Source: Laetmonice hystrix
Lineage: Eukaryota
Direction of reading: 5' to 3'
NCBI GenBank assembly: GCA_965235115.1
Contig: OZ249436.1
Location: 23,810,001 to 23,874,000, forward strand
Length of the DNA stretch: 64,000 nucleotides
Part shown: positions 2,257-56,585 of the stretch, piece after piece
Position numbering within the stretch: the stretch's first letter is position 1
Layout of the letters: the number at the start of each line of letters is the position of its first letter
Notes under the pieces: generated by a model
The model's database searches: none
What the model was told of the DNA's origin: nothing
Seen by the model: only the letters and a program-made list of their open reading frames with translations
Position numbers and translations under genes: made by a program

Positions 2257-2263
2257 AATAATA

Positions 2264-2318
2264 GGGAAGACGAAACCACACAATTTCAAAATCCCATCCC
2301 CCACTTGGGGGATGGGAT
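2264..2318 (-). mobile_element. Unmatched 5' terminus of a family A element (host of D copy 1)
   Basis: GGGAAGACGAAACCACACAATTTCAAA plus hairpin ATCCCATCCCCCA-CT-TGGGGGATGGGAT, matching the family A termini at 5388-5565. Confidence 0.75.
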
Positions 2319-2329
2319 AATAATAATAA

Positions 2330-5300
2330 CTAGAAACACTGATTGCTGAAGCAATACAGGGATCCCATCCCCCTGGTTATCATCACTTGTCAACACGTTG
2401 TGAACCCTGATGCAGTGCACACTGGGAAACTGTCGTGCCAAGCCACCTCTCAGATTCCATAACATGAAAACTATTGATTTTAGAGAAGCCATCTTGGTGT
2501 CACATACAGTTGACCTATTAAAAAATCTTGGATTGGTCTATTTGAATGCAATTACAAAATATCCTTTGGTAATCAGTACCAGTTCAATCCTATAATCACA
2601 TGTCTGAATTGCGTGGCGATGGTCAAGAGTGTTCGACTCCAATCGGAGAGGTCCTGGGATCAATCCAGGTACTCGGCATGTTTTTCACTTTTTTATTTTT
2701 CCCCCCTAATTTTTTAAAATAGTCACGTGACCTAAAAAAAATTATATAATAAAGAGCATATGTGACTTCCTATTCATGTACAATAGTAACCAAGGCTCCA
2801 TCTTTCACCGTTTAGAAGTTACAGCCAATTGTTTCTGAAAACGGCCATGACCCCAACTTCAATGCCACGTGGTACCCCTAAAATAGGTCACAGCGCTTTA
2901 TCATAAAGAAGCCCATTGAAGATCTCCATGGAGATTTCCTGAAATCAATTTGGGGTCGATTTGACCAAAAATGTGGGGCGTGAAACCATTTTGTCACTTT
3001 TTGACATATGACTTACATCTCAAGAAGGTTAAAGGTCAGGGGTCAAATGTAGTAACAAAGTTATGGGCACTTAAGTGATAAGGTCCCCGATATGAATAAA
3101 TTTTGTTCTGCTCCTCCAGGGACTCTAGAAATAAGCTATTTTCCCCAACTTTTGATTACGTCATAACTCTATGACGGTACGTCATATGACGTCATGCATA
3201 TAAAAATGAGTTGCGATGCCCATGAGCAAGAGTCCCACCAAGTTTCATTACGATACCTTAAGAAACAACTGAGAAATCGATCATTGTTAACTACTACTAC
3301 GGGTACTACTACTAATACTACAACTACAACAGGTATAATAATAATAACTAGAAACACTGATTGCTGAAGCAATACAGGGATCCCATCCCCCTGGTTATCA
3401 TCACTTGTCAACACGTTGTGAACCCTGATGCAGTGCACACTGGGAAACTGTCGTGCCAAGCCACTTCTCAGATTCCATAGCATGAAAACTATTGATTTTA
3501 GAGAAGCCATCTTGGTGTCACAGACAGTTGACCTATTAAAAAATCTTGGATTGGTCTATTTGAATGCAATTACAAAATATCCTTTGGTAATCAATACCAG
3601 TTCAATCCTGTAATCACATGTCAGAATTGCGTGGCGATGGTCAAGAGTGTTCGACTCGCATCGGAGAGGTCCTGGGATCAATCCCGGTACTTGGCATGTT
3701 TTTTACTTTTTTTATTTTCCCCCCTAATTTTTAAAAATAGTCACGTGACCTAAAAAAATTATATAATGAAGAGCATATATGACTTCCTATTCATGCTCAA
3801 TAGTAACCAAGGCTCCATCTTTCACCGTTTAGAAGTTACAGCCAATTGTTTCTGAAAACGGCCATGACCCCAACTTCAATGCCACGTGGTACCCTTAAAA
3901 TAGATCACAGCGCTTTATCCTAAAGAACCCTATTGAAGGTCCCCATGGAGATTTCCTGAAATCAATTTGGGGTCAATTCGATCAAAAATGTAGGGCGTGA
4001 AACAATTTTGTCACTTTTTGACATATGACTTACATCTCAAGAAGGTTAAAGGTCAGGGGTCAAATGTGGTAACAAAGTTATGGGCACTTAAGTGATAAGG
4101 TCTCCGATATGAATAAATTTTGTTCTGCTCCTCCAGGGAGTCTAGAAATAAGGTATTTTCCCCAACTTTTGATTACGTCATAACTCTATGACGTTACGTC
4201 ATATGACGTCATGCATATAAAAATGAGTTGCTATGCCCATGGGCAAGAGTCCCACCAAGTTTCATTACGATACCTTAAAAAACAACTGAGAAATCGATCA
4301 TTGTTAACTACTACTACGGGTACTACTACTACTACAACTACAACAGGTATAATAATAATAATAACTAGAAACACTGATTGCTGAAGCAATACAGGGATCC
4401 CATCCCCCTGGTTATCATCACTTGTCAACACGTTGTGAACCCTGATGCAGTGCACACTGGGAAACTGTCGTGCCAAGCCACTTCTCAGATTCCATAGCAT
4501 GAAAACTATTGATTTTAGAGAAGCCATCTTGGTGTCACAGACAGTTGACCTATTAAAAAATCTTGGATTGGTCTATTTGAATGCAATTACAAAATATCCT
4601 TTGGTAATCAATACCAGTTCAATCCTGTAATCACATGTCAGAATTGTGTGGCGATGGTCAAGAGTGTTCGACTCGCATCGGAGAGGTCCTGGGATCAATC
4701 CCGGTACTTGGCATGTTTTTTACTTTTTTTATTTTCCCCCCTAATTTTTAAAAATAGTCACGTGACCTAAAAAAATTATATAATGAAGAGCATATATGAC
4801 TTCCTATTCATGCTCAATAGTAACCAAGGCTCCATCTTTCACCGTTTAGAAGTTACAGCCAATTGTTTCTGAAAACGGCCATGACCCCAACTTCAATGCC
4901 ACGTGGTACCCTTAAAATAGATCACAGCGCTTTATCCTAAAGAACCCTATTGAAGGTCCCCATGGAGATTTCCTGAAATCAATTTGGGGTCAATTCGATC
5001 AAAAATGTAGGGCGTGAAACAATTTTGTCACTTTTTGACATATGACTTACATCTCAAGAAGGTTAAAGGTCAGGGGTCAAATGTGGTAACAAAGTTATGG
5101 GCACTTAAGTGATAAGGTCTCCGATATGAATAAATTTTGTTCTGCTCCTCCAGGGAGTCTAGAAATAAGGTATTTTCCCCAACTTTTGATTACGTCATAA
5201 CTCTATGACGTTACGTCATATGACGTCATGCATATAAAAATGAGTTGCTATGCCCATGGGCAAGAGTCCCACCAAGTTTCATTACGATACCTTAAAAAAC

Positions 5301-5565
5301 AACTGAGAAATCGATCATTGTTAACTACTACTACGGGTACTACTACTACTACAACTACAACAGGTATAATAATAATAATAATAATAGGGAAGATGAAACC
5401 ACACAATTTCAAAATCCCATCCCCCACTTGGGGGATGGGATAATAATAGGGAAGACGAAACCACACAATTTCAAAATCCCATCCCCCACTTGGGGGATGG
5501 GATAATAATAGGGAAGACGAAACCACACAATTTCAAAATCCCATCCCCCACTTGGGGGATGGGAT
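2330..5565 (-). mobile_element. Three nested family A HINE-like elements (~1.08 kb each): 2330-5565 > 3348-5503 > 4365-5441
   Basis: Three 3' ends (+ strand CTAGAAACACTGATTGCTGAAGCAATACAGGGATCCCATCCCC at 2330, 3348, 4365), then three stacked 5' hairpins (5414-5441, 5476-5503, 5538-5565). Confidence 0.85.
2602..2678 (+). promoter_or_regulatory. tRNA-derived Pol III A/B-box module in family A (also ~3619-3696, ~4636-4713)
   Basis: GTGGCGATGG (A-box-like) ... GGGATCAATCC (B-box-like), followed directly by T-runs. No canonical cloverleaf. Confidence 0.55.
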
Positions 5566-5567
5566 AA

Positions 5568-7296
5568 CTAGTCGCCAGGTGCCATGGGCACAGGTATCCC
5601 ATTCACCTATTGAGGTTATCATAGGTCGCGTGACCCAAAAAATATTGTGCCGAAGGAAAGATGACTTCCTTTGAGGGGCCATAACATGAAAACTATTGAT
5701 TTTAGGGGAGCCATTTCGGTGTCAGAGACAGCTGACCCATTACCCAATCCAACGGTATTAAAATCAAAAATTAGGTCAACTTGGCCGCCATGTTGGATTT
5801 TTCAAATTCGAGGAAAATGGGTCAAGTTTTCCATCCGAACCCCAATGACGAAAACCAGACGTTGATATCTTTAACCGTTTTAGAGATATCAATGATTTTT
5901 GGTTGAAAATGATCTAAAAGGGTCAACTTTGAGGGGCCATAACATGAAAACTATTGATTTTAGGGGAGCCATCTCGGTGTCAGAGACAGCTGACCCATTA
6001 CCCAATCCAATGGTGTTAAAATCAAAAATTAGGTCAACTTGGCCGCCATCTTGGATTTTTCAAATTCGAGGAAAATGGGTCAAGTTTTCCATCTTAACCC
6101 CAATGGCGAAAACCAGACGTTGATATCTTTAACCGTTTTAGAGATATCAATGATTTTTGGTTGAAAATGACCTAAAAAGGGTCATGGAGCCAGATGGGGT
6201 CACGTGACAGCATTTAAATAGGGAAATGAAAGGTGATATTAGATGTCCCATCAGTTTAGTTAGTAACAATGCACACATCTGGCTGTTTTTCCAAGTTACA
6301 GTCATCTGAAATTACCGATGACGTCATAGGGTCAGGTAGAGCCACGTGACCTAAATAAAAATGGTGTCATTTGAAAGGCCATATATGACTTCCTATCTGT
6401 CCCCAATAGTAACTATGGGCCTATCTAGCTCTGTTTCCAAGTTACTGCTAGCTGAAAATATCGATGACGTCATAGGATCACGTAGGGTCACGTGACCTAA
6501 ATAAAAATGGTGTCATTTGAAAGGCCATACATGACTTCCTATCTGTCTTCAATAGTAACCAATGGCCTATCTGGCTCTGTTTCCAAGTTACTGCTAGTTG
6601 AAAACACTGATGACGTCATGCAGCCATGTAGGGTCACGTGACCTAATTAAAAATGGTTTCATTTGAAAGGCCATCAATGACTTCCTATCTGTCTTCAATA
6701 GTAACTATGGGCCTATCTGGCTCTGTTTCCAAGTTATTACCACATATGTGTCATGAACATGTAAATTGACCCATCTACCAAAATTCAATGGCCCATATCT
6801 GGGTCAATATGGGTCAAATCGAATTTCTGTTGCGTAACTTTATGAATCCGGCCATGTAGTCTCTCAGGAGTCAATTTCAGCCTCATTTCCCTAAAATTCT
6901 GGCACGTGACACGATTTTGTCACATTTTGACCTTTGACCCATACCTCCAGAAGGTCAAAGGTCAGAGGTCAAACTGCCCTCCATAATTTAGCTAGTCACT
7001 TGTCCAATAATGATGATGGCAATAGTTTTTCGAAAGGTCTAATTTACAATGAAATACAGGCCTAAATATCTAGAACCGTTTTTACGTCATTACGTCATGA
7101 CGTTACGTCATATGACGTCATGGGTCAAATGGTCAACTTATCGTACCATGGCCAACCTATGTGCCAAGTTTCATTCAGATATCTTGAAAAACAATACCAA
7201 AGTTAACGGCACTACTACTACTACGGGAATAATAATAAAAAGGAAGATGAAACCATACAATTACAAAATCCCATTCACCTAGAAGGTGAATGGGAT
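5568..7296 (-). mobile_element. Family B HINE-like element, complete and uninterrupted (~1.73 kb)
   Basis: 3' end: CTAG, hairpin GTGCC-ATG-GGCAC, subTIR ATCCCATTCACC. 5' hairpin ATCCCATTCACC-TAGAA-GGTGAATGGGAT (7268-7296). Internal 258-bp duplication (5671/5929) and ~146-bp repeats. Confidence 0.85.
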
Positions 7297-9100
7297 AACT
7301 AGTCGCCAGGTGCCATGGGCACAGGTATCCCATTCACCTATTGAGGTTATCATAGGTCACGTGACCCAAAAAATATTGTGCCAAAAGAAAGATGACTTCC
7401 TTTGCGGGACCATAACATGAAAACTATTGAATTTAGGGGAGCCATTTCGGTGTCAGAGACAGCTGACCCATTACCCAATCCAATGGTATTAAAATAAAAA
7501 ATTAGGTCAAATTGGCCGCCATCTTGGATTTTTCAAATTCGAGGAAAATGGGTCAAGTTTTCCATCCAAACCCCAATGGCGAAAACCAGACGTTGATATC
7601 TTTAACCGTTTTAGAGATATCAATGATTTTTGGTTGAAAATGACCTAAAAGGGCCAACTTTGAGGGGCCATAACATGAAAACTATTGACTTTAGGGGAGC
7701 CATCTCGGTGTCAGAGACAGCTGACCCATTACCCAATCCAATGATGTTAAAATAAAAAATTAGGTCAACTTGGCCGCCATCTTGGATTTTTCAAATTCGA
7801 GGAAAATGGGTCAAGTTTTCCATCTTAACCCCAATGGCGAAAACCAGACGTTGATATCTTTAACCGTTTTAGAGATATCAATGATTTTTGGTTGAAAATG
7901 ACCTAAAAAGGGTCATGGAGCCAGATGGGGTCACGTGACAGCATTTAAATAGGGAAATGAAAGGTGATATTAGATGTCCCATGAGTTTAGTTAGTAACAA
8001 TGCACACATCTGGCTGTTTTTTTTCAAGTTACAGTCATCTGAAATTACCGATGACGTCATAGGGTCAGGTAGAGCCACGTGACCTAAATAAAAATGGTGT
8101 CATTTGAAAGGCCATATATGACTTCCTATCTGTCCCCAATAGTAACTATGGGCCTATCTAGCTCTGTTTCCAAGTTACTGCTAGCTGAAAATATCGATGA
8201 CGTCATAGGGTCACGTAGGGTCACGTGACCTAAATAAAAATGGTGTCATTTGAAAGGCCATACATGACTTCCTATCTGTCTTCAATAGTAACCAATGGCC
8301 TATCTGGCTCTGTTTCCAAGTTACTGCTAGCTGAAAACACTGATGACGTCATGCAGCCATGTAGGGTCACGTGACCTAATTAAAAATGGTTTCATTTGAA
8401 AGGCCATCTATGACTTCCTATCTGTCTTCAATAGTAACTATGGGCCTATCTGGCTCTGTTTCCAAGTTATTACCACATATGTGTCATGAACATGTAAATT
8501 GACCCATCTACCAAAATTCAATGGCCCATATCTGGGTCAATATGGGTCAAATCGAATTTCTGTTGCGTAACTTTATGAATCCGGCCATGTAGTCTCTCAG
8601 GAGTCAATTTCAGCCTTATTTCCCTAAAATTCTGGCACGTGACACGATTTTGTCACATTTTGACCTTTGACCCATACCTCCAGAAGGTCAAAGGTCAGAG
8701 GTCAAACTGCCCTCCATAATTTAGCTAGTCACTTGTCCAATAATGATGATGGCAATAGTTTTTCGAAAGGTCTAATGTACAATGAAATACAGGCCTAAAT
8801 ATCTGGAACCGTTTTTACGTCATTACGTCATGACGTTACGTCATATGACGTCATGGGTCGAATGGTCAACTTACCTTGCCATGGCCAACCTATGTGCCAA
8901 GTTTCATTCAGATATCTTGAAAAACAATACCAAAGTTAACGGCACTACTACTACGGGAATAATAACTAGTATAACAGATCGCAAAGCGATACTGGGATCC
9001 CATTCACCTCGAGCATTCTTTTAGCAATGGGGCAAGTATATACCATATAATGTCCCTTTAGCCACGCACTACCTATTTGCCGCGCACCCCAGAATAAGCA

Positions 9101-9536
9101 TGTCAGGCAGTATGGCTTGGTGGCAAGAAGTGGGACTCCCATTGGAAGGGTCCCGGGTTCAATCCCGGGACAAGTCACTTTTTAATTTTTTTGTTTTTCA
9201 CTCTCCAATTTTTTATAAATGGTTACGTGACCTAAAAAAAATCTATAATAAAAGGGCTTCCTGTCTGTCTTCAATAATCACTTAAGGCCTATCTGGCTCT
9301 GTTGCTAACATATTGCCAAGAATGTGTTAATTGACCGATGTACCAAATTTCAAGGGGTCATGTTTGGCTCTAACTTCATCCATTTACAAATTACAGCCCT
9401 CACAAAATATAGGTTCACTGCCTGTGATAATCAGTACCAGTTCAATCCAGAATGAGCATGTCAGACAGTATGGCTTGGTGGCAAGATGTGTGACTACCAT
9501 GGGACAGGACCTGAGTTCAATCCCGGGTCTAGTCAC
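9101..9536 (+). promoter_or_regulatory. Two tRNA-derived A/B-box modules in family C (9101-9177, 9459-9536; present in all eight copies)
   Basis: TGGCTTGGTGG (A-box) ... GGGTTCAATCC or GAGTTCAATCC (B-box), each followed by oligo-T. Confidence 0.6.
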
Positions 9537-10471
9537 GTTATTAATTTTTTTTGATTTTCCCCCTCTAATTTTAAAAAATGGTCACGTGACCTAAAAAAAA
9601 TATATAATAGAAGAGCATATATGAATTCCTATCTGTCTTCAATAGTAACTTAAGGTCTATCTGGCTCGGTTTCTAAGATATTGCTATGAATGTGTTAATT
9701 GACCCACGTACCAAAGTTCAAGGGCTCATAATTAGGTAAAAATGGGGGAGATCAAAATTCTGTGTCCGTAACTTTTCGAAACTCCCCATCTAGTCTCCCT
9801 AAACTCGATTTTGACTCAATTTGACTAAAATTCTGAAGCGTGAAAAGATTTGGTTCCATTTTGACCTATGACCTAGATCTCAACGAGGTCTAAGGTGAGA
9901 GGTCAAATTGCCCCCCAAAATCTTAGCCCCTACTTGCCCAATAAAGATGTCACTAATTGTTTTTCAAACGTTTCCATTTTCAATGAAATAGAGGCTCATA
10001 TATATAAACACGTATTACGTCATAACTCCATGACATAACGTCATATCACGTCATGACTCATATGCCTGATACCCAATCCCAATACCTATCTACAGACCAA
10101 GTTTCATTAAGATATCTTTAAAATAAATATCAAGTTGAGGCCCGAGGGTCACTACTACTACTACAGGAATAATAATAACTAGTGGCAAGGTGCCATTGGC
10201 ACAGGTATCCCATTCACCACTGGAGGTGACCATAGTCAAGTGCCCTCTCTAACAGCATTGAAACTATTAGATTAGGGGAGCCATCTCGGTGTCAGAGACA
10301 GCTGACCTATTACACAATCCAATGGTGTTAAATTAGGAAATTAGGTCAACTTGGCCGCCATCTTGGATTTTTTAAATTCAGGTCAAATGGGTTAAGTTTT
10401 CCACCCTCTGGTGAAAACCAGACATTGATATCTTTAACCGTTTTAGAGATATCAATGATTTTGGGTCACAT

Positions 10472-11750
10472 AGGGTCACGTGACCTAAATAAAAATGGTA
10501 CCATTTGAAAGGCCATATATGACTTCCTATCTGTCTTCAATAGTAACTATGGGCCTATCTGGCTCTATTTCCAAGTTACTGCTAGCTGAAAACACTGATG
10601 ACGTCATACAGCCATGTAGGGTCACGTGACCTAAATAAAAATGGTACCATTTGAAAGGCCATATATGACTTCCTATCTGTCTTCAATAGTAACTATGGGC
10701 CTATCTGGCTCTGTTTCCAAGTTACTGCTAGCTGAAAACACTGATGACGTCATACAGCCATGTAGGGTCACGTGACCTAAATAAAAATGGTGTCATTTGA
10801 AAGGCCATATATGACTTCCTATCTGTCTCCAATAGTAACTATGGGACTATCTAGCTCTGTTTCCAAGTTACTGCTAGCTGAAAATACCGATGACGTCATA
10901 CGGCCATATACGGTCACGTGACCTAATTAAAAATGGTGTTATTTGAAAGGCCATATATAACTTCCTATCTGTCCCCAATAGTAACTATGGGCCTATCTAG
11001 CTCTGTTTCCAAGTTACTGCTATCTGAAAATATCGATGACGTCATAGGGTCACGTGACCTAAATAAAAATGGTGTCATTTGAAAGGCCATACATGACTTC
11101 CTATCTGTCTTCAATAGTAACTAAGGGCCTATCTGGCTCTGTTTCCAAGTTACTGCTAGCTGAAAATACCGATGACGTCATAGGGTCACGTAGGGTCACG
11201 TGACCTAAATAAAAATGGTGTCATTTCAAAGGCCATACATGACTTCCTATCTGTTTTCAATAGTAACTAAGGGCCTATCTGGCTCTGTTTCCAAGTTACT
11301 GCTAGCTGAAAATACCGATGACGTCATAGGGTCACGTAGGGTCACGTGACCTAAATAAAAATGGTGTCATTTGAAAGGCCATACATGACTTCCTATCTGT
11401 CTTCAATAGTAACTAAGGCTTTATCTGCAACCATTTACAAGTTATGACCCTTAGAAAATCTAGGTGACCTCATTATGACGTCATAGGTCACGTGACCTTA
11501 AAAATAAAGGTCTATAATGAAAGATCATATATGACTTCCTATTAGTGTTCAATAGTAACTATAGCTCTATCTTCAACCATTTACTAGTTATAGCCCTTGG
11601 AAAATATAGGTGACCTCCTTATGACGTCATAGGTCACGTGACCTGAAAAATAAAGGTGGATAATGAAAGAGGATATATGACTTCCTATATGTGTTCCATA
11701 GTAACTTACCCTCTATCTTGCAGCGTTTTTGAGTTATAGCCACACCCCGA
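10472..11750. repeat. Internal tandem array of ~146-bp units (~9 copies) in B'
   Basis: AGGGTCACGTGACCTAAATAAAAATGG recurs at 10472, 10618, 10764 and onward; units carry GTCACGTGAC and TGACGTCA palindromes. Confidence 0.9.
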
Positions 11751-12230
11751 CTTTTGACCAGTTTTCCTCAACTTTGAGGTCACGTGACTCGCTTAATATA
11801 GGTCAGATCACTTATTCCCACCGTTCCTGTACTGAGGCCACTAATGTTCTTGCATGGGTTCAGTTTCATAGAATTTCTTTTAAATTTGAGGGAGTTGAAA
11901 GGATTTAAGCAATTTCTTTATTGTGACCTAGTTCTCCTATGGGCCAAAGGTCAAAGGTCAAACTGCCCTCCATAATTTTGCTAACCCCTTATCCAATAAT
12001 GATGATGGCAATAGTTTTTCAAAAAAGTCTAATTTACTATGAAATACAGGCCTATATATCTGGAACCGTTTTTACGTCATTACGTCATTACGTCATGACG
12101 TTACGTCATATGACGTCATGCGTCACATGGCCAACTCATCTTCCCATGGCCAACCTATGTGCCAAGTTTCATTGGGATATCTTGAAAATAGAGATACAAG
12201 TTAACGGAACTACTACAGGAATAATAATAA

Positions 12231-15200: not shown

Positions 15201-15454
15201 AATGAGCTTTAATGTACACAACACGTTTCACGTCATGACGTCATGACGTGACGTTACGTGACGTCATGACGCACCATGAGATCAGAGTTTGTCATCGTGA
15301 AGACGTAGCCCAAGTTTCATTGAGATATCCTGAAAAATGACTGAGATATACGTATAGGTTTACGACTACTACGACTACTACTACTACAGGCATAAAAATA
15401 AGGAAGACGAAACCAGACAATTTCAAGATCCCTTCCCCTATCGGGGGAAGGGAT
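12231..15454 (-). mobile_element. Family D copy 2, complete (~3.2 kb)
   Basis: 3' end: CTAG, ATTGCT-AA-AGCAAT hairpin, ATCCCTTCCCC. 5' hairpin ATCCCTTCCCC-TATCG-GGGGAAGGGAT (15428-15454). Confidence 0.85.
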
Positions 15455-15546
15455 AATAATAATAATAATAATAATAAAAAGGAAGGCGAAACCATACAAT
15501 TTCAAAATCCCATTCACCTGGAAGGTGAATGGGATAATAATAATAA

Positions 15547-21500: not shown

Positions 21501-21783
21501 CGGGGTCTAAGGTCAGAGGTCAAATTGCCCCCCAAAATCTTAGCCCCTACTTGCCCAATAAAGATGTCACTAATTGTTTTTCAAACGTTTCCATTTTCAA
21601 TGAAATAGAGGCTTATATATATAAACACGTATTACGTCATAACTCCATGACATAACGTCATATCACGTCATGACTCATATGCCTGATACCCAATCCCAAT
21701 ACCTACCTACAGACCAAGTTTCATTAAGATATCTTTAAAATAAATATCAAGTTGAGGCCCGAGGGTCACTACTACTACTACAG

Positions 21784-21819
<36 letters not shown>

Positions 21820-24563
21820 GGAAGACGAAACCATACAATTTCAAAATCCCATTCACCCTCTAGGGTGAATGGGATAATAATAATAATAAGGAAGACGAAA
21901 CCATACAATTTCAAAATCCCATTCACCCTCTAGGGTGAATGGGATAATAATAACTAGCATAACAGATCGCAAAGCGATACTGGGATCCCATTCACCTCGA
22001 GCATTCTTTTAGCAATGGGGCAAGTATATACCATATAATGTCCCTTTAGCCACACACTACTTATTTGCCGCACACCCCAGCATAAGCATGTCAGACAGTA
22101 TGGCTTGGTGGCAAGAAGTGGGACTCCCATTGGAAGGGTCCCGGGTTCAATCCCGGGACAAGTCACTTTTTAATTTTTTTGTTTTTCACTCTCCAATTTT
22201 TTATAAATGGTTACGTGACCTAAAAAAATCTATAATAAACGGGCTTCCTATCTGTCTTCAATAATCACTTAAGGCCTATCTGGCTCTGTTGCTAACATAT
22301 TGCCAAGAATGTGTTAATTGACCCATGTACCAAATTTCAAGGGCTCATGTTTGGCTCTAACTTCACCCATTTACAAATTACAGCCCTCACAAAATATTGG
22401 TTCACTGCATGTGATAATCAGTACCAGTTCAATCCAATATGAGCATGTAAGACAGTATGGCATGGTGGCAAGATGTGTGACTGCCGTGGGAAAGGATGTG
22501 AGTTCAATCCCGGGTCGAGTCACGTTATTAATTTTTTTTTTATTTTTCCCCTCTAATTTTAAAAAATGGTCACGTGACCTAAAAAAAATCTATAATAAAA
22601 GAGCATACTTGAATTCCTATTTGTCTTCAATAGTAACTTAAGGCCTATCTGGCTCTGTTTCTAAGATATTGGCATGAATGTGTTAATTGGCCGACGTACC
22701 AAAGTTCAAGGGCTCATAATTAGGTCAAAATGGGGGAGATCAAAATTCTGTGTCCGTAACTTTTTGAAACTCTCCATGTAGTCTCCCTAAACTCAATTTT
22801 GACTCAATTTGACTAAAATTCTGGAGCGTGAAAAGATTTGGTCACATTTCGACCTATGACCTAGATCTCAACGGGGTCTAAGGTCAGAGGTCAAATTGCC
22901 CCCCAAAATCTTAGCCCCTACTTGCCCAATAAAGATGTCACTAATTGTTTTTCAAACGTTTCCATTTTCAATGAAATAGAGGCTTATATATATAAACACG
23001 TATTACGTCATAACTCCATGACATAACGTCATATCACGTCATGACTCATATGCCTGATACCCAATCCCAATACCTATCTACAGACCAAGTTTCATTAAGA
23101 TATCTTTAAAATAAATATCAAGTTGAGGCCCGAGGGTCACTACTACTACTACTTGTATAATAATAATAAGGAAGACGAAACCATACAATTTCAAAATCCC
23201 ATTCACCCTCTAGGGTGAATGGGATAACTAGCATAACAGATCGCAAAGCGATACTGGGATCCCATTCACCTCGAGCATTCTTTTAGCAATGGGGCAAGTA
23301 TATACCATATAATGTCCCTTTAGCCGCACACTATTTATTTGCCTCGCACCCCAGCATAAGCATGTCAGACAGTATGGCTTGGTGGCAAGAAGTGGGACTC
23401 CCATCGGAAGGGTCCCGGGTTCAATCCCGGGACAAGGCACTTTTTAATTTTTTTGTTTTTCACTCTCCAATTTTTTTATAAATGGTTACGTGACCTAAAA
23501 AAAATCTATAATAAACGGGCTTCCTATCTGTCTTCAATAATCACTTAAGGCCTATCTGGCTCTGTTGCTAACATATTGCCAAGAATGTGTTAATTGACCC
23601 ATGTACCAAATTTCAAGGGCTCATGTTTGGCTCTAACTTCACGCATTTACAAATTACAGCCCTCACAAAATATTGGTTCACTGCATGTGATAATCAGTAC
23701 CAGTTCAATCCAATATGAGCATGTAAGACAGTATGGCAAGGTGGCAAGATGTGTGACTCCCGTGGGAAAGGATGTGAGTTGAATCCCGGGTCTAGTCACG
23801 TTATTAATTTTTTTTATTTTTCCCCTCTAATTTTAAAAAATGGTCACGTGACCTAAAAAAAATCTATAATAAAAGAGCATACTTGAATTCCTATCTGTCT
23901 TCAATAGTAACTTAAGGCCTATCTGGCTCTGTTTCTAAGATATTGGCATGAATGTGTTAATTGGCCGACGTACCAAAGTTCAAGTGCTCATAATTAGGTC
24001 AAAATGGGGGAGTTCAAAATTCTGTGTCCGTAACTTTTTGAAACTCCCCATCTAGTCTCCCTAAACTCAATTTTGACTCAATTTGACTAAAATTCTGGAG
24101 CGTGAAAAGATTTGGTCACATTTCGACCTATGACCTAGATCTCAACGAGGTCTAAGGTCAGAGGTCAAATTGCCCCCAAAAATCTTAGCCCCTACTTGCC
24201 CAATAAAGATGTCACTAATTGTTTTTCAAACGTTTCCATTTTCAATGAAATAGAGGCTCATATATATAAACACGTATTACGTCATAACTCCATGACATAA
24301 CGTCATATCACGTCATGACTCATATGCCTGATACCCAATCCCAATACCTATCTACAGACCAAGTTTCATTAAGATATCTTTAAAATAAATATCAAGTTGA
24401 GGCCCGAGGGTCACTACTACTACTACTTGTATAATAATAATAAGGAAGACGAAACCATACAATTTCAAAATCCCATTCACCCTCTAGGGTGAATGGGATA
24501 ATAATAAGGAAGACGAAACCATACAATTTCAAAATCCCATTCACCCTCTAGGGTGAATGGGAT
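15547..24563 (-). mobile_element. Family C copies 2-8 (~1.27 kb each): 15547-16817; 16881-24563 hosting 18094-19364, 19367-21945 (hosting 20583-21875), 21954-23225 and 23228-24499
   Basis: Seven near-identical bodies. Counting copy 1, there are eight 3' ends and eight C-type 5' hairpins (ending 16817, 16878, 19364, 21875, 21945, 23225, 24499, 24563). Confidence 0.85.
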
Positions 24564-24636
24564 AATAAAAAGGAAGATGAAACCATACAATTACAAAATC
24601 CCATTCACCTAGAGGGTGAATGGGATAATAATAAAA

Positions 24637-24761
24637 AGGAAGATGAAACCATACAATTACAAAATCCCATTCACCTAGAAGGTGAATGGGATAATAATAA
24701 GAAAAAGGAAGACGAAACCATACAATTACAAAATCCCATTCACCTAGAAGGTGAATGGGAT
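24637..24761 (-). mobile_element. Two unmatched family B 5' termini (bodies predicted upstream of the window)
   Basis: Hairpins 24664-24692 and 24733-24761 match the B terminus at 7268-7296. Confidence 0.7.
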
Positions 24762-27172
24762 AATAACTAGCGCCGATGTGGCTTGGGCCAACATCTTGTA
24801 TCCCATCCCCTGGCAATGAAAATCATAGATACATTATCATGTTAGACTACCTCCACGTCATCGATAGGCCCGTAGATCGAAAGAGCATATATTATTTCTT
24901 CCTATATGACCTCAATAATTAATATTGGTCATCTATCAATGACGTCATTGTCACGTAATACGTCCCCCTACATAATAGATGTTGTTACCTTTTGAAAAAA
25001 CATGTACCTATTATAGCTTCAATAGTAACCATAGCTCTACCTGGCCCCCTTTCAGAGTTATAGCTGTTTCAATAATATTGGTGATCTATCAACATCGATT
25101 TTCTTTTTCATTTCGATTTTGGAGACCCCTCTGCCGAAAATCCTGGGCCCGTGGCTGTATTTTGAGTTAGCCTAACAATAATGTTTGTCAATTCTTCAAA
25201 AAGAAAGAGTGGGGATAGGGCCTATATAGAGGGGGCCCACGCCAGGCAGCGCCAGGCAGGCCCTTCAGTGCTAGCGACTACCGCCCGGCAATCAATTTTT
25301 TCTTTCCTATAGTTATTTCTTCTTTCCTACAGCTATATTCTCACTGTGATCTCACCATTTGATCTCTCACTGTGAGATCATTTTGACATCTCTCTGACAT
25401 AAAACAGTACCAATATATTGGGCTTTCCTTAGAAGAATACGATCTTACAGCAATCTCATAGCGATCTAACCATGATCTCAATTTCTTCTCACACTGTGAG
25501 ATCATTTTGACATCTCTCTGACATAACAGTACCAATATATTTTTGAAATGACGTTGTCGCACCACCTTCCTGGGTTCCCACAAGGACATTCTAGAAAAAA
25601 TCCTGGCTTAATCAGTTCTAACCATTGCGTGGGCACGCTGTAGTATCTCCTGTGCCAGTTAAGCACTGACGCTAAACACCCGTACCCCCGTCCTCACTAT
25701 TGATGTTTCCCGTCGGAAATTCAAATTGGTTTTTCTATACTGGGTTGTTTTAAAATTAAAAAAATATCATCTCTACGTCCCTGTATTGTTCTTTTCACAA
25801 TTAGCGAAAAAATAAAGCGTAATTTTACACAATGATAGCTGTTTTTGAATGACATGACGTGAATTATTTGAAGTCGCTAGAAGTTCACCTATTGACTGTG
25901 TTTCGGACAGTCTAGTCAATCTCAATGATAACAGCGCCACCACCTGAGATTTACATGATGTCAAGGTGATGTCGGAATTTTATAACATTTTGACATCAGA
26001 AAGGTCTCAATATTTGTTCTCACATAGTGAAGTCATTATGAGATTGCTGTGAGATCAATGTGTGATCTTACTAGCTGAGATTTACGTGATATCAAGGTGA
26101 TGTTGGAATTTTATAACATTCTGACATCAGAAAGATCTCACTATTTGTTCTCGCATAGTGATATCATTATGGGATTGCTGTGAGATCAATGTGTGATCTC
26201 ACCAGCTGACATTTATGTGATATCAGGGTGATGTCGGAATTATATCTCATTCTGACCTCATGAGATCATACTGACATCATAATGATTGCGACTTCACACC
26301 TGTGAGGAAAAAGTGACCTCACTGTGATCTCAGCGTTAGCTCACTTCCCGACTGGGAAGGATTTAGCTAGGCCTATGGCAAATTGTCCCTTTGTGTATTC
26401 TGAATACACAATCACATTCCTCCAACCCCTCCCTGACTGGGAGGAAAATATAGGGCGCAGCTGGCCAAGAGTTCTCTCTTAACTTCAAGAAGACGGCTTA
26501 ATATCATCAGTGTTGTTTTATTCCGCTGTCCTCCAATATAAGATTCAAGAATATAATATATTAGACAGTAATACCTACAGTTTTATATAAATACAAATGC
26601 CCAGCTATTCAATTAAGTATTTTCCCAGCACAAGGGTCCATCAACATCAACCCATCCTGACTGGGGGGAATGGGGCAGTCACCGCCCGACCTTATCAGCA
26701 GCAGTTACGTAACACTGCCAACACCGGGCAGGGAGAGGCGGCTGGCCATGCACAGCGGGTGATTTGTGTATTCAGAGATGCCAACCGTTAGTGTAAAAAT
26801 ATCATTGTTATCCATTAAAACTTACAATTCTGGTCAAATTATCTTTTAAAAAAAAGAACTAAACAATCAGTGGTATACCTGAATCTATAGACTTTGTAAT
26901 TGTTGTATTTGTATGTGGCTATCTTAAACATGTTTCAAGGTACAGACTGTCAAAGCTAGATTAAAGATATTTCATCATAAATTAAAAATTATTGGTAAAT
27001 TTATGAAAAGGATTATGCAAAGTGATCAATCGTCAATGCCAGCACATATCTAATTACCAAATACACGATTCCTAAATGACTGAAGCCGTTTTAGAAAAAA
27101 ATGTCAAAAGTGACAAACTTCAAAGTCACGTGGTACAGCGAAAATAGGTCTAATGGCTTATTGCTGAAGTTT

Positions 27173-27817
27173 TCCAGTCGCTGTGATATCAATTTGAAAT
27201 CACATATCTTACTGTGATCTCACCATTTGATCACTCACTGTGAGATCATTTTGACATCTCTCTGACATAACAGTACCAATATATTTGGCTTTGCTTAAAA
27301 GAATACGATCTCACAGCAATCTCATAGCGATCTAACCATGATCTCAATTTCTTCTCACACTGTGACATCATTTGGACATCTCTCTGACATAACAGTACCA
27401 ATATATTTTTGAAATGACGTTGTCGCACCACCTTCCTGGGTTCCCATAGGGACACTCTAGAAAAAATCCTGGCTTAGGCAGTTCTAACCATTGCGTGGGC
27501 ACGCTATAGTATCTCCTGTGCCAGTTAAGCACTGACGCTTAACACCCATACCCCGTCCTCACTATTGATGTTTCCCGTCGGAAATTCAAATTGGTGTTTA
27601 CGTGATATCAAGGTGATGTCGGAATTTTATAACATTCTGACATCAGAAAGATCTCACTACAATTGTTCTCGCATAGTGATATCATTATGGGATTGCTGTG
27701 AGATCAATGTGTGATCTCACCAGCTGACATTTATGTCATATCAGGGTGATTTCGGAATTATATCTCATTCTGACCTCATGAGATCATACTCAGCGTTAGC
27801 TCACATACCCGACTGGG
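27173..27817. mobile_element. MITE-like insert with CCAGTCG...CGACTGGG ends and GTGAGATC/GATCTCAC subterminal repeats; longer partial copy at ~25340-26356
   Basis: Short inverted ends plus many oriented subterminal repeats, an architecture resembling CMC/EnSpm elements. TSD not resolved. Confidence 0.5.
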
Positions 27818-28828
27818 AAGGGTTTAGCTCTAGGCCTATGGCAAATTGTCACTTTGTGTATTCTGAATACACAATCACATTCTTCCAACCCCAACCTGAC
27901 TGGGAGGAAGAGGGGGAGTAGTAACCGACCCGCCGGGCGGCCGGCCCTTATCACCAGCACTTACGTAACCCCCTGCCGACCCTGGGCCTGGCTTCACCGC
28001 GGGCGTTCTGTATATTCAGAAATGCCAACCGTCAGTGTAAACATATTAATGTTATCCATTAAAACTTACAATTCTGGCCAGATTACCTTTCCAAAAAAAG
28101 AACTAAACAATCAATGGTATACCTGAATCTATAGACTTTGTAATTGTTCTATTTGTATGTGGCTATCTTAAACACGTTTTATGGTAGAGCCTGCAAAGTC
28201 AGATAAGATATATTTTATCATAAATTAAAAATTATTGGTAAATTTATGAAAAGAATTATTCACAGTGATCAATCGTCAATAGCAGCACATATCTAGTGAC
28301 CAAATAGACGATTCCTAAATGACTGAAATGGTTTTAGAAAAAAATGTCAAAAGTGACAAACTTCAAAGTCACGTGGTACAGCGACAATAGGTCAAATTGC
28401 TTATTCCCGACTCGAGCAAATAAAGCTCACTACAGAAGACCTGTCCACCAAAAAGTATTATATTTTCTCAAAAAATGGCACAGGAGTAGGAATTTGACCA
28501 CTTTAGGACATATGACCTACTTTTCCATGACGTCAAAGGTCAAAGGTCAAAATAATGAAGATTAGTAAAAAGGGTCTATGCCCGATTATTAGACTATGAA
28601 AAGTTTTGGGAAACTATGGATTATGACTTCAAGAAATGCCTATAAGTTTGAAATGCAAAATACGTCATGACGTCATGACGTGACGTCGTATGACGTAATA
28701 ATTATAGGGATCGATTCTCCCTACCATTCTGAATGTCCATGCCAAGTTTTATTTGGATATCTGTATCAATGACTGAGCTGTATGCACAAAAGCAACTACT
28801 ACAACTACTACTACTACTACGGGAATAA

Positions 28829-30536
28829 CTAGATAGGATGTGGCGATAGCCACATTATGAATCCCATCCCCCTGGGGCGTTTCCGTCCGACCCATTGTAT
28901 TCTATTCGTTTTCAACATGAAACATTGCTCCATCTTGTACCTTTCACAAGAAATTCCAATGCCATCATTATCATAGGCATCGGAAGATAATTTTCCAGGG
29001 GGGGGGGCAAAGATACAGGGTTCAGCACCGTTTAGCATGTGCAGGCCTGTGGAAATTTTGAGAATATGTCAATGACGTCAATATGACGTCATACGATATG
29101 CTATATAATAAATATTAAAAGAGCATATCTTTCCATCGTGTTTAAGAGTGACTATGGGCCTTTCTGGCACCGTTTAGCAGTTACACTTACAGGACAAAGT
29201 AAATCATTAAGCGACACAGCAGGATTATACTAAAATATGAACATACTTATACCTTTATAAGGTGATTTTACGTTACTATGCGAGTATTATGCATTTTATC
29301 TTTTATTTTTGTGATTAGGCTCTGAGCCAAACAGAGCAGTGCTTTATACAGTCTGCAATTTGGTGGCTCCATCTGTAGGTGCTGCGATCCCGGCCTTGTA
29401 GAACCAATGGGCGAGCGCTAAGGGATAGGACATGCCTCAGCAAATATTGAGATTTGAATGCTTTGGCCCATTTTGGAGCAAAAGAAAGGTATTAAATTGC
29501 ATGTAAAACGGGATGATTTTCAAGATAGGCCCTAAAGAGAATTTCCTTTCAGATGGTGTAGTCAGCTATTTACAGAATGTACAACAGTTCATATAGGCTG
29601 AAAGTTTGAAAAATAAACACCACTTTTTCGGCACCCATGTTCACATAGTAGCATATGCGGCCACCAGGGGGCGGCAGGTAAGCGTGGGAACACACGTGTC
29701 CTCAGCCCTTCGCCTGCCGAGCAGCGCCATGAACTTCTGCAGAATGATGCTTTTTAATATAGTTTTCGAAGGCGCCTCTTTGCCAGTAGCAGGGATATGG
29801 TGGCCAAATGGTTAAATCTACGATAAACCAGGGAACCGTGCTTTTGAACGGTGTATATCCTTTATTTATACAACCCTACTTAACATGCGGTATGAAAGAA
29901 AGAATATACCACAGTTATCATGTCGCTATAATTACCTTCACCACCACCCCCCCCCCCCCCCATCCCAAAGCAAAATCCTGGATCATCCGCCAGTCTTTTA
30001 TGGGGATATTTAATGAAACAGAACGCAGTGCAGTGGGCAGTGTCCAGGTGTGTGTATGTGAGTAGAAAGTAAATCTTGTGGGTTTTGGGCCAAAATCGGG
30101 TTCGTCTGTTCTGAGAACTGTTGGTCAGGGAATCATACCTATACCTAGATGAAGGGTTTGCAGCAGTAGCGGTGGCGACCTTCCCTCCCGCCAGGACGTC
30201 CCTTCCACCGCCAGTCCCCCTCCCCAGCCTGCTGACTTCAGTCCGATTAAGGAGAAGGGCGTCTGTCACCCCCGATCCCCATATACCAAGTACTAACTAA
30301 CTGCTGTTCCAAATAATGTGGCCATAATAATGTGGGTCTTATTCAATGTGTTACTGATATCTCAGTCACCCTAACCCCCATGTACCCAAGCACTAATTAG
30401 GCCTACTCTGGTACTTCTCCAAATAATGTGGTCTTAATAATGTGGGTCTTATTTAATGTCTTACTGATGAAGATGTGGTGAAAAAAGGGGAGCTTTTTCA
30501 AGTAGAAAATGTGGCAAGGCTAGCCATATAAAGATC

Positions 30537-30606
<70 letters not shown>

Positions 30607-33600
30607 TTAACCAACAGCAACAAGGGTGGGGGTTGCAGAAGATAATTGCAGGTCACTAATTGATCCCTTAATTTATGTGCAGACCGCCACTGCCTGCCTG
30701 TCTGCGCTCCATCTATTAATAGGGTTGGGAGAGACATGTGCGGTCAGACAACATGTGCAAGCATTTCAAAAACTTAGACCCCCTACATGTAACGAATGAT
30801 TAGGCCTACTTCCTTTCATTATTAGAAGTCTCCTCAAAAGGTTTGATACCAGGTAACAAAACTCGCAACGGCGATACGGCCATAATTGTGGTCAGTGTGA
30901 GCAAGGAGTATAGAATTCTATACTCGTTGGTGTGAGCAGGGGAGGCAGGCAGGCAGGCGGGCGGGCGTTCATTGCAGGGTGTCTGCTGCCAACATCCCCC
31001 ATCTCTTTCCAACCGTCGCCTGCCCAAACTATAATGAGTATTGCCTTTATATTTTAGAGGCCTGAAGCTTAACATGTTAGCAAGCTACTCCTAAAATTTC
31101 ATGACGAAGGATGTGATAATGTCGGATATATACACATGCTCTACTTTTAGTCTACCATAGCGACCGTGTCCACGCAGGACTGACCCACATAAGAGAGGGA
31201 ACATGTCACTAAGTAGGTCATCCATTAATCGTGAAATTCGCCGCCTGTCCTCACTATTTTGGTATATATTGAACTGCTGTCTTGTTAATTATAAATTTTG
31301 CTCATTGAAATTTATAATATAAAATAGCAGACACTTTAAAGTCCCTACCCTATACATATTAAAGGGTGTGAGCTTACCATTCCGTCGCTAATGCAAATTA
31401 TACAAATGACGTTGTAGATGACGTAAGAAGTCACGTGACACAAAAATTATGATACCTAATTAAAGAGGCCACCAAAGTGTATCAGGTTCATGAACAATTA
31501 TGCCCCTGTCTGGAGTCTTTCAAACGTTACAGCGATTATTCTCCGAAAAGACCCACATTCAAAACTTCAAGGTCACGTGGTTCTGTGAAAATAGATCAAA
31601 TTGCTTATCCGCTGCTCTATTTTTTGAAGCTTTCATTGGAGAATGTTTTTACCCTATATTATCAAATTTTACCCCAAAATGGGGAAGCATTTACGATTTA
31701 ACCGATTTGTGACGTTTGACCCAGTTCTCCCTAAGGTCAAAGGCCAAAGGTCAAATTAAGGGTCATATTTAGGCAACACCCTTGCCTGATTATAGTGGCA
31801 CGAGGTATTTTTGAAATTCCCGATATGGGCTGAGAAAATGGGCCTAAATGTACAAAAGAAAATCTACGTCATAACGTCATGACATGACGTCATATGACGT
31901 CATGCTTCAAACTGGCATTTCTCTCTGGTGTCCTTAATATGCCTACCAAGTTTCGTATTGATATCTTGAAAAATGAGCGAGATATGATGCTATAAGGGAA
32001 TGAGTCTAACTACTACAACCTACGGGAACTAGATAGGATGTGGCGATGGCCACATTATGAATCCCATCCCCCTGGGGCGTTCCCGTTCTACTAATTTTCA
32101 ACATGAAACATGGCTCCGTCTTGCACCTATCACAAGTTATAATCCTTGCCTTAATAGATGCCAATAATGTCATTATGATGTCAGACAGTACCCTGCTGTA
32201 CATCATGAATCTTGGCGTCAAATGAAAGCAGGGTTCCCTGCTTTTTGTGAACATCCAATTCCCTGAGTGTTTTCCTGAGAATTCCCTGAGAAATTTCCAA
32301 AATTCCATGTGATATATATTTGTGTTTTATAGGTAGCATAACCGATTATAACGGTCCGGAGAGGTGCATTCTTCACACTCTATCAACATTACAAAGCCAC
32401 GATATAAATAAGTCATTTTTTCAGGGATTCCAATACCGTCATAATATGATCATTATGGTCTCCGGTCGATCTGGCCCATGACCGATATGGCCTGGTTGAT
32501 ATGGCCCAGGTAGTTGGTCAATATGGCCCACCCCCGGTCAATATGGTACACTAGCTAGCTTTTCACGGTAATGCCATCATGAGTTGCTAGTCTGGGAATA
32601 TTTCCCTTTGAGGCTGAAGGTGGAGATGTCAGCACCTGTACCTGAGTGTGAGAAAGCTTTTGACGGCACGCTGCATAAATAATATTGGTATCAATTGAAA
32701 GAGCATAATCTTTCCATTCATGTTTAATAGTAACTATGAGAGTATCTCGCACCGTTTAGCAGTTTTACTTACAGGCCTCTGAAAATCGTTATAGTACTCC
32801 ACAACATATCTAGTGCAACTCTCCTCCTATGTAAGATTCAAAAACATCTATGTATTAGACAGTTATACCTACAGTTCAGAACCACAGTTAATTCAGTTAT
32901 GTCTGTTCTGAATACACATAGGCCTAATCCTCCAACCCTGCCCTGATTGGGAGGAAAGGGGGAGTATAGTGACTCACGACCCACCGGCCCAAACTGTGAA
33001 ATCTATCCACATCAATCTGCTGGCTCACTAAACCAAGGACAGCTGGCCAAGAGTTGTTTTGTAACTTTAAGAAGACAGCCTTCATGAGAGTTTTGTTTTA
33101 TTGCTTTCCTCCAATATAAGATTAAAAAAATATGTATTAGACAGTTACACATACAGCTCTAAAGCACAGCTAATTCAGTTGGGGCTGTTCTGGACATACA
33201 GATTCCTCCAACCCCACCCTGACTGGGACGACCGGGTAGTCGACACCAGCCGGCCTTATCAGCAGCAATTACATAACTCTCAGCCCCGGCCAGCGCCGGG
33301 CGGCACCAGCTCACACTGCGGGCGGTCTGTGTATACAGAGACTGCAACCATCCTAGTGCCAAACATAATAATTTGTGAAGACTATACCCATGAAAACTTA
33401 TGATTTTGGCTATATTGCCTTTCGAGAAAAAGAATTAAACAATCAGTGGTATACCTGACTCTATGCACTTTATAACAGACGTACTTGCATATGGCTATGT
33501 TCAATACCTTTCAAGATACAGCCCGTAGAAGTTCGGTTACATAAATCAGAAAGATGACGTCATAGATGACATCACAAGTCTCGTGATACAAAAATTATGG

Positions 33601-34295
33601 TACGTAATTAAAGAGGACATAAACCTTTATAAAGTTAATGAACAATTAAGGCTCTGTCTTAAATCTTTCAAAAGTTACAGCAAGGACCTTTCAAAATGAC
33701 CGAAGTTCAAAATTTCAAGGTCACGTGGTTCAGTGAAAATAGGTCAAATTGCTAAACCCGATGCACCAGTTTTTGGAGCTTTCAGTGGAGAATGTTTCTA
33801 CCAGATATTGTCAAATTTCACCAAGAAATGGGGAAGAAGACGCGATTTAACCGATTTGTGACCTCTGACCCAGTTCTCTCTAAGCTTAAAGGTCAAAGGT
33901 CAAATCAAGTGTCAGATTTAGGCAACACCCATGCCTGATTATATTGCTATGAGGCGTTTTTGAAATTCCCAATATGAGCTTAGAAAATGGGCCTCAATGC
34001 ACAAAACACAATTTACGTCATGACGTCATGACGTGACGTCATATGACGTCATGCTTCAAACTGGCAATACTCTTTGGCGTCCTTAATATGCCTACCAAGT
34101 TTTGCTTTGATATCATGAAAAATGAGCGAGATATGGATATATTTAGTGAATAGTCTAACTACTACGGGAATAATAATACAGAAGATGAAACCACACAATT
34201 TCAAAATCCCATCCCCTTGATGGGGGATGGGATAATAATACGGAAGATGAAACCACACAATTTCAAAATCCCATCCCCTTGATGGGGGATGGGAT
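28829..34295 (-). mobile_element. Family F elements: F1 28829-34295 hosting F2 32029-34233
   Basis: Two 3' ends CTAGATAGG-ATGTGGC-GATR-GCCACAT-TATGA-ATCCCATCCCC and two identical 5' hairpins (34206-34233, 34268-34295). Confidence 0.78.
30537..30596. repeat. (GA)n microsatellite
   Basis: About 30 uninterrupted GA units. Confidence 0.95.
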
Positions 34296-34364
34296 AATAA
34301 TACGGAAGACGAAACCATACAATTTTAAGATCCCATCCCCCTATCGGGGGGATGGGATAATAAA

Positions 34365-34422
34365 AAGGAAGACGAAACCATACAATTTCAAAATCCCATT
34401 CACCCTTTAGGGTGAATGGGAT
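34365..34422 (-). mobile_element. Unmatched C-like 5' terminus: outer edge of the nested stack
   Basis: ATCCCATTCACCCT-TT-AGGGTGAATGGGAT (34393-34422); unrelated sequence follows. Confidence 0.7.
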
Positions 34423-34448
34423 AATAATGACATACGCAGGAGCCTGGA

Positions 34449-38142: not shown

Positions 38143-38143
38143 G

Positions 38144-56541: not shown

Positions 56542-56585
<44 letters not shown>

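Follow-up and report, generated by a model that had tools for sequence, protein, structure and literature searches.

Non-autonomous Helentrons (HINEs), which are rolling-circle transposons, are known as DINE-1 in Drosophila, HINE-Mo in a mite and Cg_HINE in the Pacific oyster (PMC4067079, PMC7492417). According to the accessible text of these two papers, they carry a 5' subterminal repeat with its inverted copy, a left microsatellite, internal satellite-like tandem repeats and a 3' subterminal copy with a palindrome; they have a T-rich target that is not duplicated, and a partner encoding Rep, helicase and apurinic/apyrimidinic (AP) endonuclease. These features, the palindrome less securely than the rest, recur in an array of elements that we analyzed in Laetmonice hystrix, in a stretch of 64,000 nucleotides (contig OZ249436.1, positions 23,810,001 to 23,874,000 of the forward strand; hereafter the window). 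The elements of this array are HINEs, and the explanation that fits the whole region best, and that we consider probable, is a nest formed by targeted insertion into TTA tracts carried by the elements themselves.

The published HINE target is given as "TT" or T-rich in the accessible text, whereas here it is a six- to eight-base motif, TWATTA|TT (the bar marks the joint). Unlike in the published HINEs, as far as that text describes them, the elements' own microsatellite is this motif repeated, giving deep nests of a single orientation. The word "nested" is absent from the text of PMC7492417 and PMC8268682, and PMC4067079, as far as its text is accessible, uses it but never for one element inserted in another. 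Neither a Helentron with its own microsatellite as target nor stacks of 5' ends in reverse order were found in the literature searched, which extended neither to the primary paper on complex oyster loci nor to the Cg_HINE supplements. A full-text search with words of the 5' unit returned only two unrelated papers sharing a 13-letter word.

Microsatellite-targeted arrays have been described for SaTar, the non-autonomous Mutator-like elements (MULEs) of guayule and rice (PMC5907723). In the accessible text, SaTar elements, like those studied here, are small and non-autonomous, form multimeric arrays of unrelated members via microsatellites and leave functional bodies uninterrupted. They transpose, however, by cut and paste, have terminal inverted repeats and are flanked by duplications of 8-11 bp where the site is not a targeted one, whereas the present elements are rolling-circle transposons with asymmetric ends and no duplication. 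SaTar microsatellites flank the elements, in arrays called non-nested; here an element carries its tract internally, at ~57 nt, hosts are formally split and ends are stacked in reverse. The array thus works like a SaTar array, but it is not a member of that group. In Paramecium, strand-specific Helitron insertion into telomeric repeats has been proposed (PMC13085455), and there, too, one strand of a simple repeat is targeted, the orientation is fixed and repeat blocks stand on both sides. That repeat is the telomere rather than a part of the element, the Helitron belongs to a different clade, and the accessible text describes no bracket-like nesting.

The element type, the T-rich target and the microsatellite are already known, as is array formation by microsatellite targeting in SaTar. 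Single-strand transposons of the HUH type, IS200/IS605 and IS91, also have a short fixed target abutting one end, no duplication and a subterminal hairpin, and in IS608 the target is read by DNA-DNA contacts; these elements are prokaryotic and use proteins different from those of Helentrons.

The Array Is a Nest of HINEs

We added 40 kb upstream of the window to the analysis. The nest is 58,584 bp long and reaches from 24,160 bases upstream of window position 1 to window position 34423, and positions 1-34423 are its right-hand 34 kb, the nest having begun 24 kb before the window. The plus strand shows two recurring landmarks. One is the word ACTAG, after which come a short palindrome and an ATCCC... 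arm; it marks the 3' end of a minus-strand element. The other, a unit of ~55 nt reading GAAGAYGAAACC and then ATCCC, arm, loop, arm and GGGAT, is the 5' end. The array contains 29 recognizable 3' ends and 30 5' ends, in a single orientation throughout.

Eighteen of the terminal 3' ends, with ACTAG, short palindrome and ATCCC arm, lie in window 1-34423. Eight of these junctions follow the end of a host body and (AAT)nA (3347, 4364, 8965, 10178, 12230, 18093, 20582 and 28828), one follows ...CGGGA (32028), five follow GGGATA directly (5567, 7298, 16880, 19366 and 23227) and four follow GGGAT(AAT)1-3A (2329, 15546, 21953 and 24766). The original prediction, made from the window alone, had given the 3' junctions as (AAT)nA|ACTAG, GGGATA|ACTAG or GGGA|ACTAG, and all 18 read as described. 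Six other ACTAG words between 1 and 36000 (11583, 13561, 26070, 32550, 34537 and 34985) are without the terminal structure. Whereas shuffles give an expectation of 0.01, the window has 11 copies of the junction word AATAATAACTAG. No HINE 5' or 3' end, in either orientation, lies inside any body of the whole 58,584-bp array, so that the sparing of element bodies originally noted for 1-34.4 kb holds; differences in body length within a family are due to internal tandem repeats of 146 and 258 bp.

We then parsed the plus strand as brackets, which open at 3' ends and close at 5' ends, and paired them last in, first out. The array parses as a nest up to six deep. In the 29 pairs, formed with the 5' unit at 24708 set aside (a choice made by arm type, after the types had been seen), the subterminal arms agree at 258 of 261 positions. 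With shuffled pairing there were 36.9 mismatches on average and never fewer than 17; none of 20,000 shuffles reached the observed 3. Seven hosts have a guest-free copy of their family in the array, and all seven are paired with a 5' end of their own family. On another contig, an independent array has the parse C(C(B()C())), followed by generic DNA.

Divergence from the family C consensus was 3.8% for the hosts and 0.68-0.85% for six guests, and the nearest relatives of several family C guests are on other contigs. These figures are alignment distances; identities weighted by high-scoring segment pairs (HSPs), which the internal repeats distort, were replaced by them. Judged by these distances, the hosts are older than their guests, as nested insertion requires. 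Nests of this kind can date transposition bursts, since insertion of an inner copy has to postdate that of the copy surrounding it.

Ends of the Elements and Their Target

The DNA into which the array is inserted (34422..34600, no strand assigned) is a copy of another dispersed repeat, the uninterrupted paralogues of which read ...GCAGTA|TAATAATGACATACGC... at the insertion point. Six of seven such paralogues have the empty site GCAGTA|TAATAATGAC, the two halves of which are interrupted by the array, and comparison with them shows that no base was duplicated or lost around the whole array. The empty sites place the termini at 5'-TCCC...CTAG-3', with a 1-base ambiguity at the 5' boundary; an initial choice of termini, TATCCC...CTAGT with a cut at T|T, was dropped after this comparison. 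On the element strand the cut is directly after TTATTA (TTATTA|TA), that is, A|T or, shifted by one base, T|T. The predicted insertion at TT can therefore still be read with a 1-nt shift, but a cut after TTATTA describes the site better than "any TT." With the 3' end at CTAG, all array junctions become TTA|TCCC...CTAG|TTA, in phase with the tract, and even the tightest head-to-tail junctions (GGGATA|ACTAG) hold one TTA between the elements. The dispersed repeat that houses the array (window 34422-34700) has 40 scored copies, of 1,736 first-look candidates, that match a 160-bp part of it at 89-97% identity.

At generic sites, the 5' flanks of families A and C read AAT[A/T/g]A after GGGAT in 29 of 29 cases (A in 17, T in 11 and G in 1), which amounts to T(T/A/c)ATTA ahead of TCCC. 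A sampling of tracts yielded five solitary HINEs, with TAATAA (three), TAATTA (one) and TAATGA (one) at this position. Since an A precedes ACTAG in 9 of 10 generic 3' flanks of family A, the target continues with TT. From these flanks the target is about TWATTA|TT, a motif that (TTA)n offers at every repeat and on one strand only. The uniform orientation of guests and hosts follows from this, because the tract repeats the target on one strand only, and among 193 listed 5' flanks there was no neighbor in the opposite orientation. Of the octamers inside the array, 70 are in junction zones and 6 elsewhere; the other strand has none. The hexamer occurs 98 times in these zones and 113 times elsewhere (p ~5e-10 for 28/28), and by itself would be insufficient.

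We also considered a fixed distance between the cut and the host hairpin. It was unsupported, as the remainders of the tract vary widely, from 6 to ~30 nt on the 5'-end side and from 0 to 16 nt on the body side, and the right-most guest biases the measure. At the left edge of the array, nine extra bases stand between the target and the outermost 3' end, and the same nine bases come after a guest in a host tract of family I. The outermost element thus seems to carry part of a former host with it, by what looks like a 3' read-through. In three other places (C1:29937468, C2:11185757 and C11:7347785), elements of families A and A2 have their 3' junctions within (GAA)n, or (TTC)n on the element strand, indicating that another T-rich trinucleotide repeat is used occasionally.

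Anatomy of the HINEs and Their Autonomous Partner

On its own (minus) strand, an element of the array consists of 5'-TCCC, hairpin, spacer, (TTA)n, (GTA)n, body, a copy of the subterminal repeat, palindrome and CTAG-3'. The hairpin is formed by the subterminal repeat and its adjacent inverted copy, with a 12-13-bp stem and a 4-nt loop, and two hairpins that were folded gave energies of -14.2 and -14.5 kcal/mol (z -4.1 and -6.5). It spans 21-33 nt and is followed by the spacer and by 1-2 linker bases before the tract, which begins ~53-60 nt from the 5' end, close to where the original prediction had placed it. Between hairpin and tract, all 30 ends have a spacer of exactly 26 nt, ~88% conserved across families with differing hairpins. 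The subterminal arm begins at base 1-3 of the element, and its 3' copy lies 23-40 nt from the end. In two families that were folded, the 3' palindrome has a 5-bp stem 10-14 nt from the end, with a folding energy no better than that of shuffles (z about -0.5); palindromic words near the 3' end are visible in all families.

These elements thus share with Helentrons a subterminal repeat at both ends, the arms of which agree over the 29 pairs as given above, a 5' inverted repeat, a left microsatellite together with internal tandem repeats, and T-rich insertion without target-site duplication. Their autonomous partner encodes Rep, helicase and AP-endonuclease and has the same ends, the 3' end of the copy studied lying outside the stretch examined. 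Scans of the window for tRNAs and Rfam families gave no match. As for the termini of the host, the claim that an insertion leaves both intact is correct for the termini themselves, but the guest's 3' terminator now separates the host's 5' end from the host body.

Across the genome, the Helitron Rep domain (PF14214) was matched 125 times, for the most part in open frames 2,000-3,600 codons long. One locus, L065 (contig C7:4645200-4652600), contains a frame with Helitron_like_N, PIF1 and Exo_endo_phos domains (PF14214, PF05970 and PF03372). In the stretch studied the frame has 1,419 amino acids and its start lies outside; the same genomic frame extends over 3,634 amino acids without a stop. The coding part runs on, with no 3' end between, into 955 bp that are 94% like HINE-A, and the locus terminates in a 5' unit of family A that bears an (AAT)7 tract. 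Because the coding part is followed by HINE-A-like sequence and a family A 5' end, family A is a deletion derivative of an endonuclease-encoding Helentron. The Rep reading frame opposes the structural 5'-to-3' direction, whereas PMC4067079, in its accessible text, reports the same for one Drosophila family only. Many autonomous Helentrons seem intact; several lie at most 20 kb from family A ends, and on C7 such units recur every ~19-22 kb.

Insertions into HINE-borne and Free Sites across the Genome

At a tolerance of at most 2 mismatches, the HINE group has 3,407 5' ends in the 627-Mb genome (control, 0), and for 59 of the first 100 listed, another 5' end lies within 140 bp. To classify insertion sites, we assigned census classes by eye from the 17-20-nt flanks in pattern listings. 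By this assignment, 79 of 93 family A 5' ends (one palindrome artefact having been dropped) lie in the tract of another HINE or at its 5' boundary. A short tract and a further 5' end come next in 43 of them (six of these resolved by a spacing of 71-80 bp), 0-3 repeats (in one case a longer tract) and the 3' end of another element in 33, and HINE fragments in 3. Of the remainder, 12 are followed by generic DNA and 2 by a long tract. For family C and a close variant, 100 of 119 5' ends were listed, and 83 of these 100 are in HINE context, 43 being followed by a tract and a 5' end and 40 lying next to a 3' end; 17 are at generic sites. Ten of the family C assignments were resolved by the spacing to the next listed 5' or 3' end.

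The original prediction held that the element-borne (TTA)n is a preferred target, renewed by every insertion, and the census supports it. The outcome that would have spoken against it, most copies at random TT sites without enrichment, was looked for genome-wide and was not seen. The microsatellite inside HINEs had no assigned role; here it is the element's preferred target, repeated.

We next compared these tracts with free ones. Among 22 sampled tracts of (AAT) with at least 5 repeats, 17 were free, some with 20-27 repeats, and none of the free tracts abuts a HINE end; genome-wide there are ~2,600 such tracts, as estimated from 9,749 overlapping hits. Free tracts of at least 3 repeats hold 0-2 of the 93 family A 5' ends and none of the 100 listed for family C. 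Octamers occur at ~0.6 per kb in the non-array half of the window; with ~2.3 HINE-borne sites per element and 3,407 elements, the HINE-borne sites are expected to be a few percent of all sites. Genome-wide, the target sequence therefore seems insufficient, which suggests an added effect of HINE context. Three points weaken this suggestion: the sample of free sites is small, array duplication inflates the nested counts, and retention may differ between repeat blocks and other DNA. On the source of targeting, which the original prediction had sought in the (TTA)n sequence or in transposase bound at the neighboring 5' hairpin, the part played by sequence is established by TWATTA at 29 of 29 generic sites and one empty-site check, and a part played by hairpin or context is suggested by the near absence of insertions in long free tracts.

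Proposed Mechanism and Alternatives

The mechanism that we propose builds on what has been shown: the anatomy, the order of nesting, a target left unduplicated, a hexamer next to copies at generic sites and an excess of insertions in HINE tracts across the genome. A Helentron protein with Rep, helicase and endonuclease, encoded elsewhere in the genome, would drive transposition, and the hexamer is presumably recognized by this machinery. Integration would occur without target duplication directly 3' of T(T/A)ATTA, usually with TT next. New copies would land in a resident's tract, or in the single TTA before a resident 5' end, in the orientation of the host; each guest would supply a fresh tract, and repetition would give bracket-like nests. 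HINE-borne tracts may be favored over free ones by protein bound to the hairpin or spacer, by DNA structure or by pairing with the spacer. More tentatively, Helentron integration might amount to homing, with the machinery drawn to resident 5' ends by the hairpin, the 26-nt spacer or strand pairing and cutting the adjoining TTA tract; the tract would then be kept up as a landing pad on which a whole guild of HINE families accumulates in self-made, gene-free nests, and guests would cut hosts from their own 3' ends. We regard this extension as possible but doubtful.

Several findings weigh against reading every junction as an independent targeted insertion into a favored tract. The empty-site comparison covers a single founder site, with a boundary that is ambiguous by 1 nt, and the census classes were, as stated, assigned by eye. 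Sister family A2 is mostly at generic sites: of its 57 3' flanks, 38 are generic, 14 are in HINE context, 2 are in (GAA)n and 3 are ambiguous; a share of 14/57 is still far above the target size. Some loci lying apart from one another have identical flanks, so that the census is inflated by segmental duplication. Within the array, the distance is 0.17% between hosts 8965 and 16880, 0.08% between guests 15546 and 18093 and 0.25% between guests 20582 and 21953, and bodies 3347 and 4364 are 99.9% alike, so that not all copies are independent insertions. The near-identical pair of hosts with its near-identical pair of guests indicates that a host-plus-guest unit was duplicated or moved whole and that each unit later gained different guests. 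One of the 30 5' ends of the main array has no partner, and a second cluster at 54.5-58 kb has five stacked 5' ends against one recognizable 3' end and one further body; this surplus indicates that body loss, or amplification of 5' units by exchange between tracts, also occurs. On contig C2, over an 85-kb stretch, fewer C-type 5' ends are listed downstream of a run of C bodies than balance needs.

Some of these points would be expected if there had been no targeted transposition and unequal exchange or replication slippage between tracts had separately amplified units of body plus tract and of 5' end plus tract. Near-identical neighbors and orphan or surplus 5' ends agree with such exchange, as do the long runs of family C bodies spaced 1204-1214 bp on contig C2 and three units, 4,152 bp apart, in which a family A 5' end is fused to an A body end (C2:38675782, 38679934 and 38684087, a tandemly repeated rearranged unit). 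Exchange cannot, however, put D in B' in C in B with the 5' ends in reverse order; it predicts neither older hosts, nor guests with their nearest relatives on other contigs, nor a 29:30 balance of ends, and in 12 of 19 zero-tract junctions behind family A 5' ends the neighbors are heterologous. We therefore consider it very unlikely as the sole process, and for heterologous nests it is contradicted. Rolling-circle concatemers or read-through, which have been proposed for tandem Helitrons in plants and bats, could make head-to-tail arrays, and the 3' end does stand nearly against a 5' end (GGGATA|ACTAG) in 8 of 28 internal array junctions. The same tight joint is found in 19 of 33 junctions between a family A 5' end and a 3' end, 7 of the 19 joining A to A, and the 9 nt of foreign 3' flank on the outermost element indicate that read-through occurs. 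Against this origin, one TTA always stays between the ends, no direct CTAG|TCCC joint, of the same family or otherwise, was found among the junctions listed, the other 12 of the 19 tight junctions join different families, and concatemers cannot stack 5' ends; the chance that the array arose in this manner is slight indeed. That the array is an assembly artefact of a repeat-rich region has a practically negligible probability: the same grammar is found at independent loci on other contigs, private substitutions follow the nesting depth, and the flanks join into one uninterrupted paralogous sequence. Public reads, consisting only of short unitigs from one sample that cannot span a junction, neither support nor contradict any junction.

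In a different division of roles, the resident element's end would do most of the targeting, and the TTA tract would be merely the nearest permissible cut site. Three candidates could act in this way: transposase on the 5' hairpin or the conserved 26-nt spacer, a tract rendered single-stranded by cruciform extrusion, or strand pairing with the spacer. Such direction from the end would explain why free tracts are plentiful yet unused, why HINE-borne sites, a few percent of octamers, take 83-85% of family A and C copies, and why the spacer keeps its exact length and most of its sequence despite differences between hairpins. Yet founders at generic sites had no resident end nearby and still carry the hexamer in 29 of 29 cases, the cut is at no fixed distance from the host hairpin, and the octamer alone predicts the sites inside the array. 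The excess may in part reflect array duplication and better retention in repeat-rich regions, and the estimates for free sites come from a small sample and from base composition. On balance, we consider targeting mainly by the resident end unlikely, and favor insertion guided by the TTA motif. If the context effect is real, it would mean end-directed targeting in a eukaryotic rolling-circle transposon.

Reviews of oyster repeats, in their accessible text, mention "complex, shuffled" Helitron loci (PMC12628747, PMC11136912). The insertion rule described here turns loci of this kind into readable brackets with a built-in order of events, and the nests show how rolling-circle elements can build large repeat blocks without gene damage.

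Elements of the Array and Other Features of the Window

All array elements described below are on the minus strand. The window opens in a family D HINE (1..2257), the 3' end of which is 1,572 bases before the window and the 5' end of which, at 2205-2257, has the hairpin CCCTTCCCC..GGGGGAAGGG; its body is 87-91% like the D copy at 12230. Next is the 5' unit of a family A host (2266..2319), assigned by bracket pairing and arm match to a 3' end 10,326 bases before the window. Three family A HINEs assigned by bracket pairing follow: 2329..5566 is host to the next two, 3347..5504 lies in its tract, and 4364..5442 is innermost, with its tract unoccupied. The three bodies precede three stacked 5' ends at 5389, 5451 and 5513; in rough HSP-weighted figures, the body at 2329 is ~96% like the other two, which have the 99.9% identity given above.

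Family B is represented by a guest-free HINE at 5567..7297, with internal 258- and 146-bp tandem repeats, and by a second HINE at 7298..24627 that, by bracket pairing, holds two family C nests. The host of the first nest (8965..16879; bracket pairing and alignment distance) contains a B' guest at 10178-15536, which itself contains a D guest at 12230-15455, and a C guest at 15546-16818. The host of the second, assigned in the same way (16880..24564), contains the C guests 18093-19365, 19366-21946, 21953-23226 and 23227-24500, and a further C guest, 20582-21876, lies within 19366-21946. For the composite copying between 8965 and 24564, transposition of a composite and unequal exchange are both candidates.

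The 5' unit of a family B host (24639..24693) has its 3' end 22,351 bases before the window. It is followed by the orphan B-type 5' unit (24708..24762), for which there is no matching 3' end or body. A family E HINE assigned by bracket pairing (24766..34359) is host to a family F HINE (28828-34296), which in turn is host to a second F (32028-34234). The array closes with the 5' unit of the outermost element, of family I (34368..34423), the 3' end of which is 24,160 bases before the window.

The second, smaller HINE cluster (54539..57981) is in the opposite orientation, on the plus strand. Its five stacked 5' ends (56212-56532) are 91% alike and have two hairpin types in the order X1 X2 X2 X2 X1. 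At 60065-62691, 34-bp repeats are interspersed with tandem repeats 334 and 172-173 bp in length (97-98% alike), which have no relation to the HINE array. The G+C content is 45-51% at 36000-42000 and 48000-50000, compared with ~40% in the array, and these segments may be genic.

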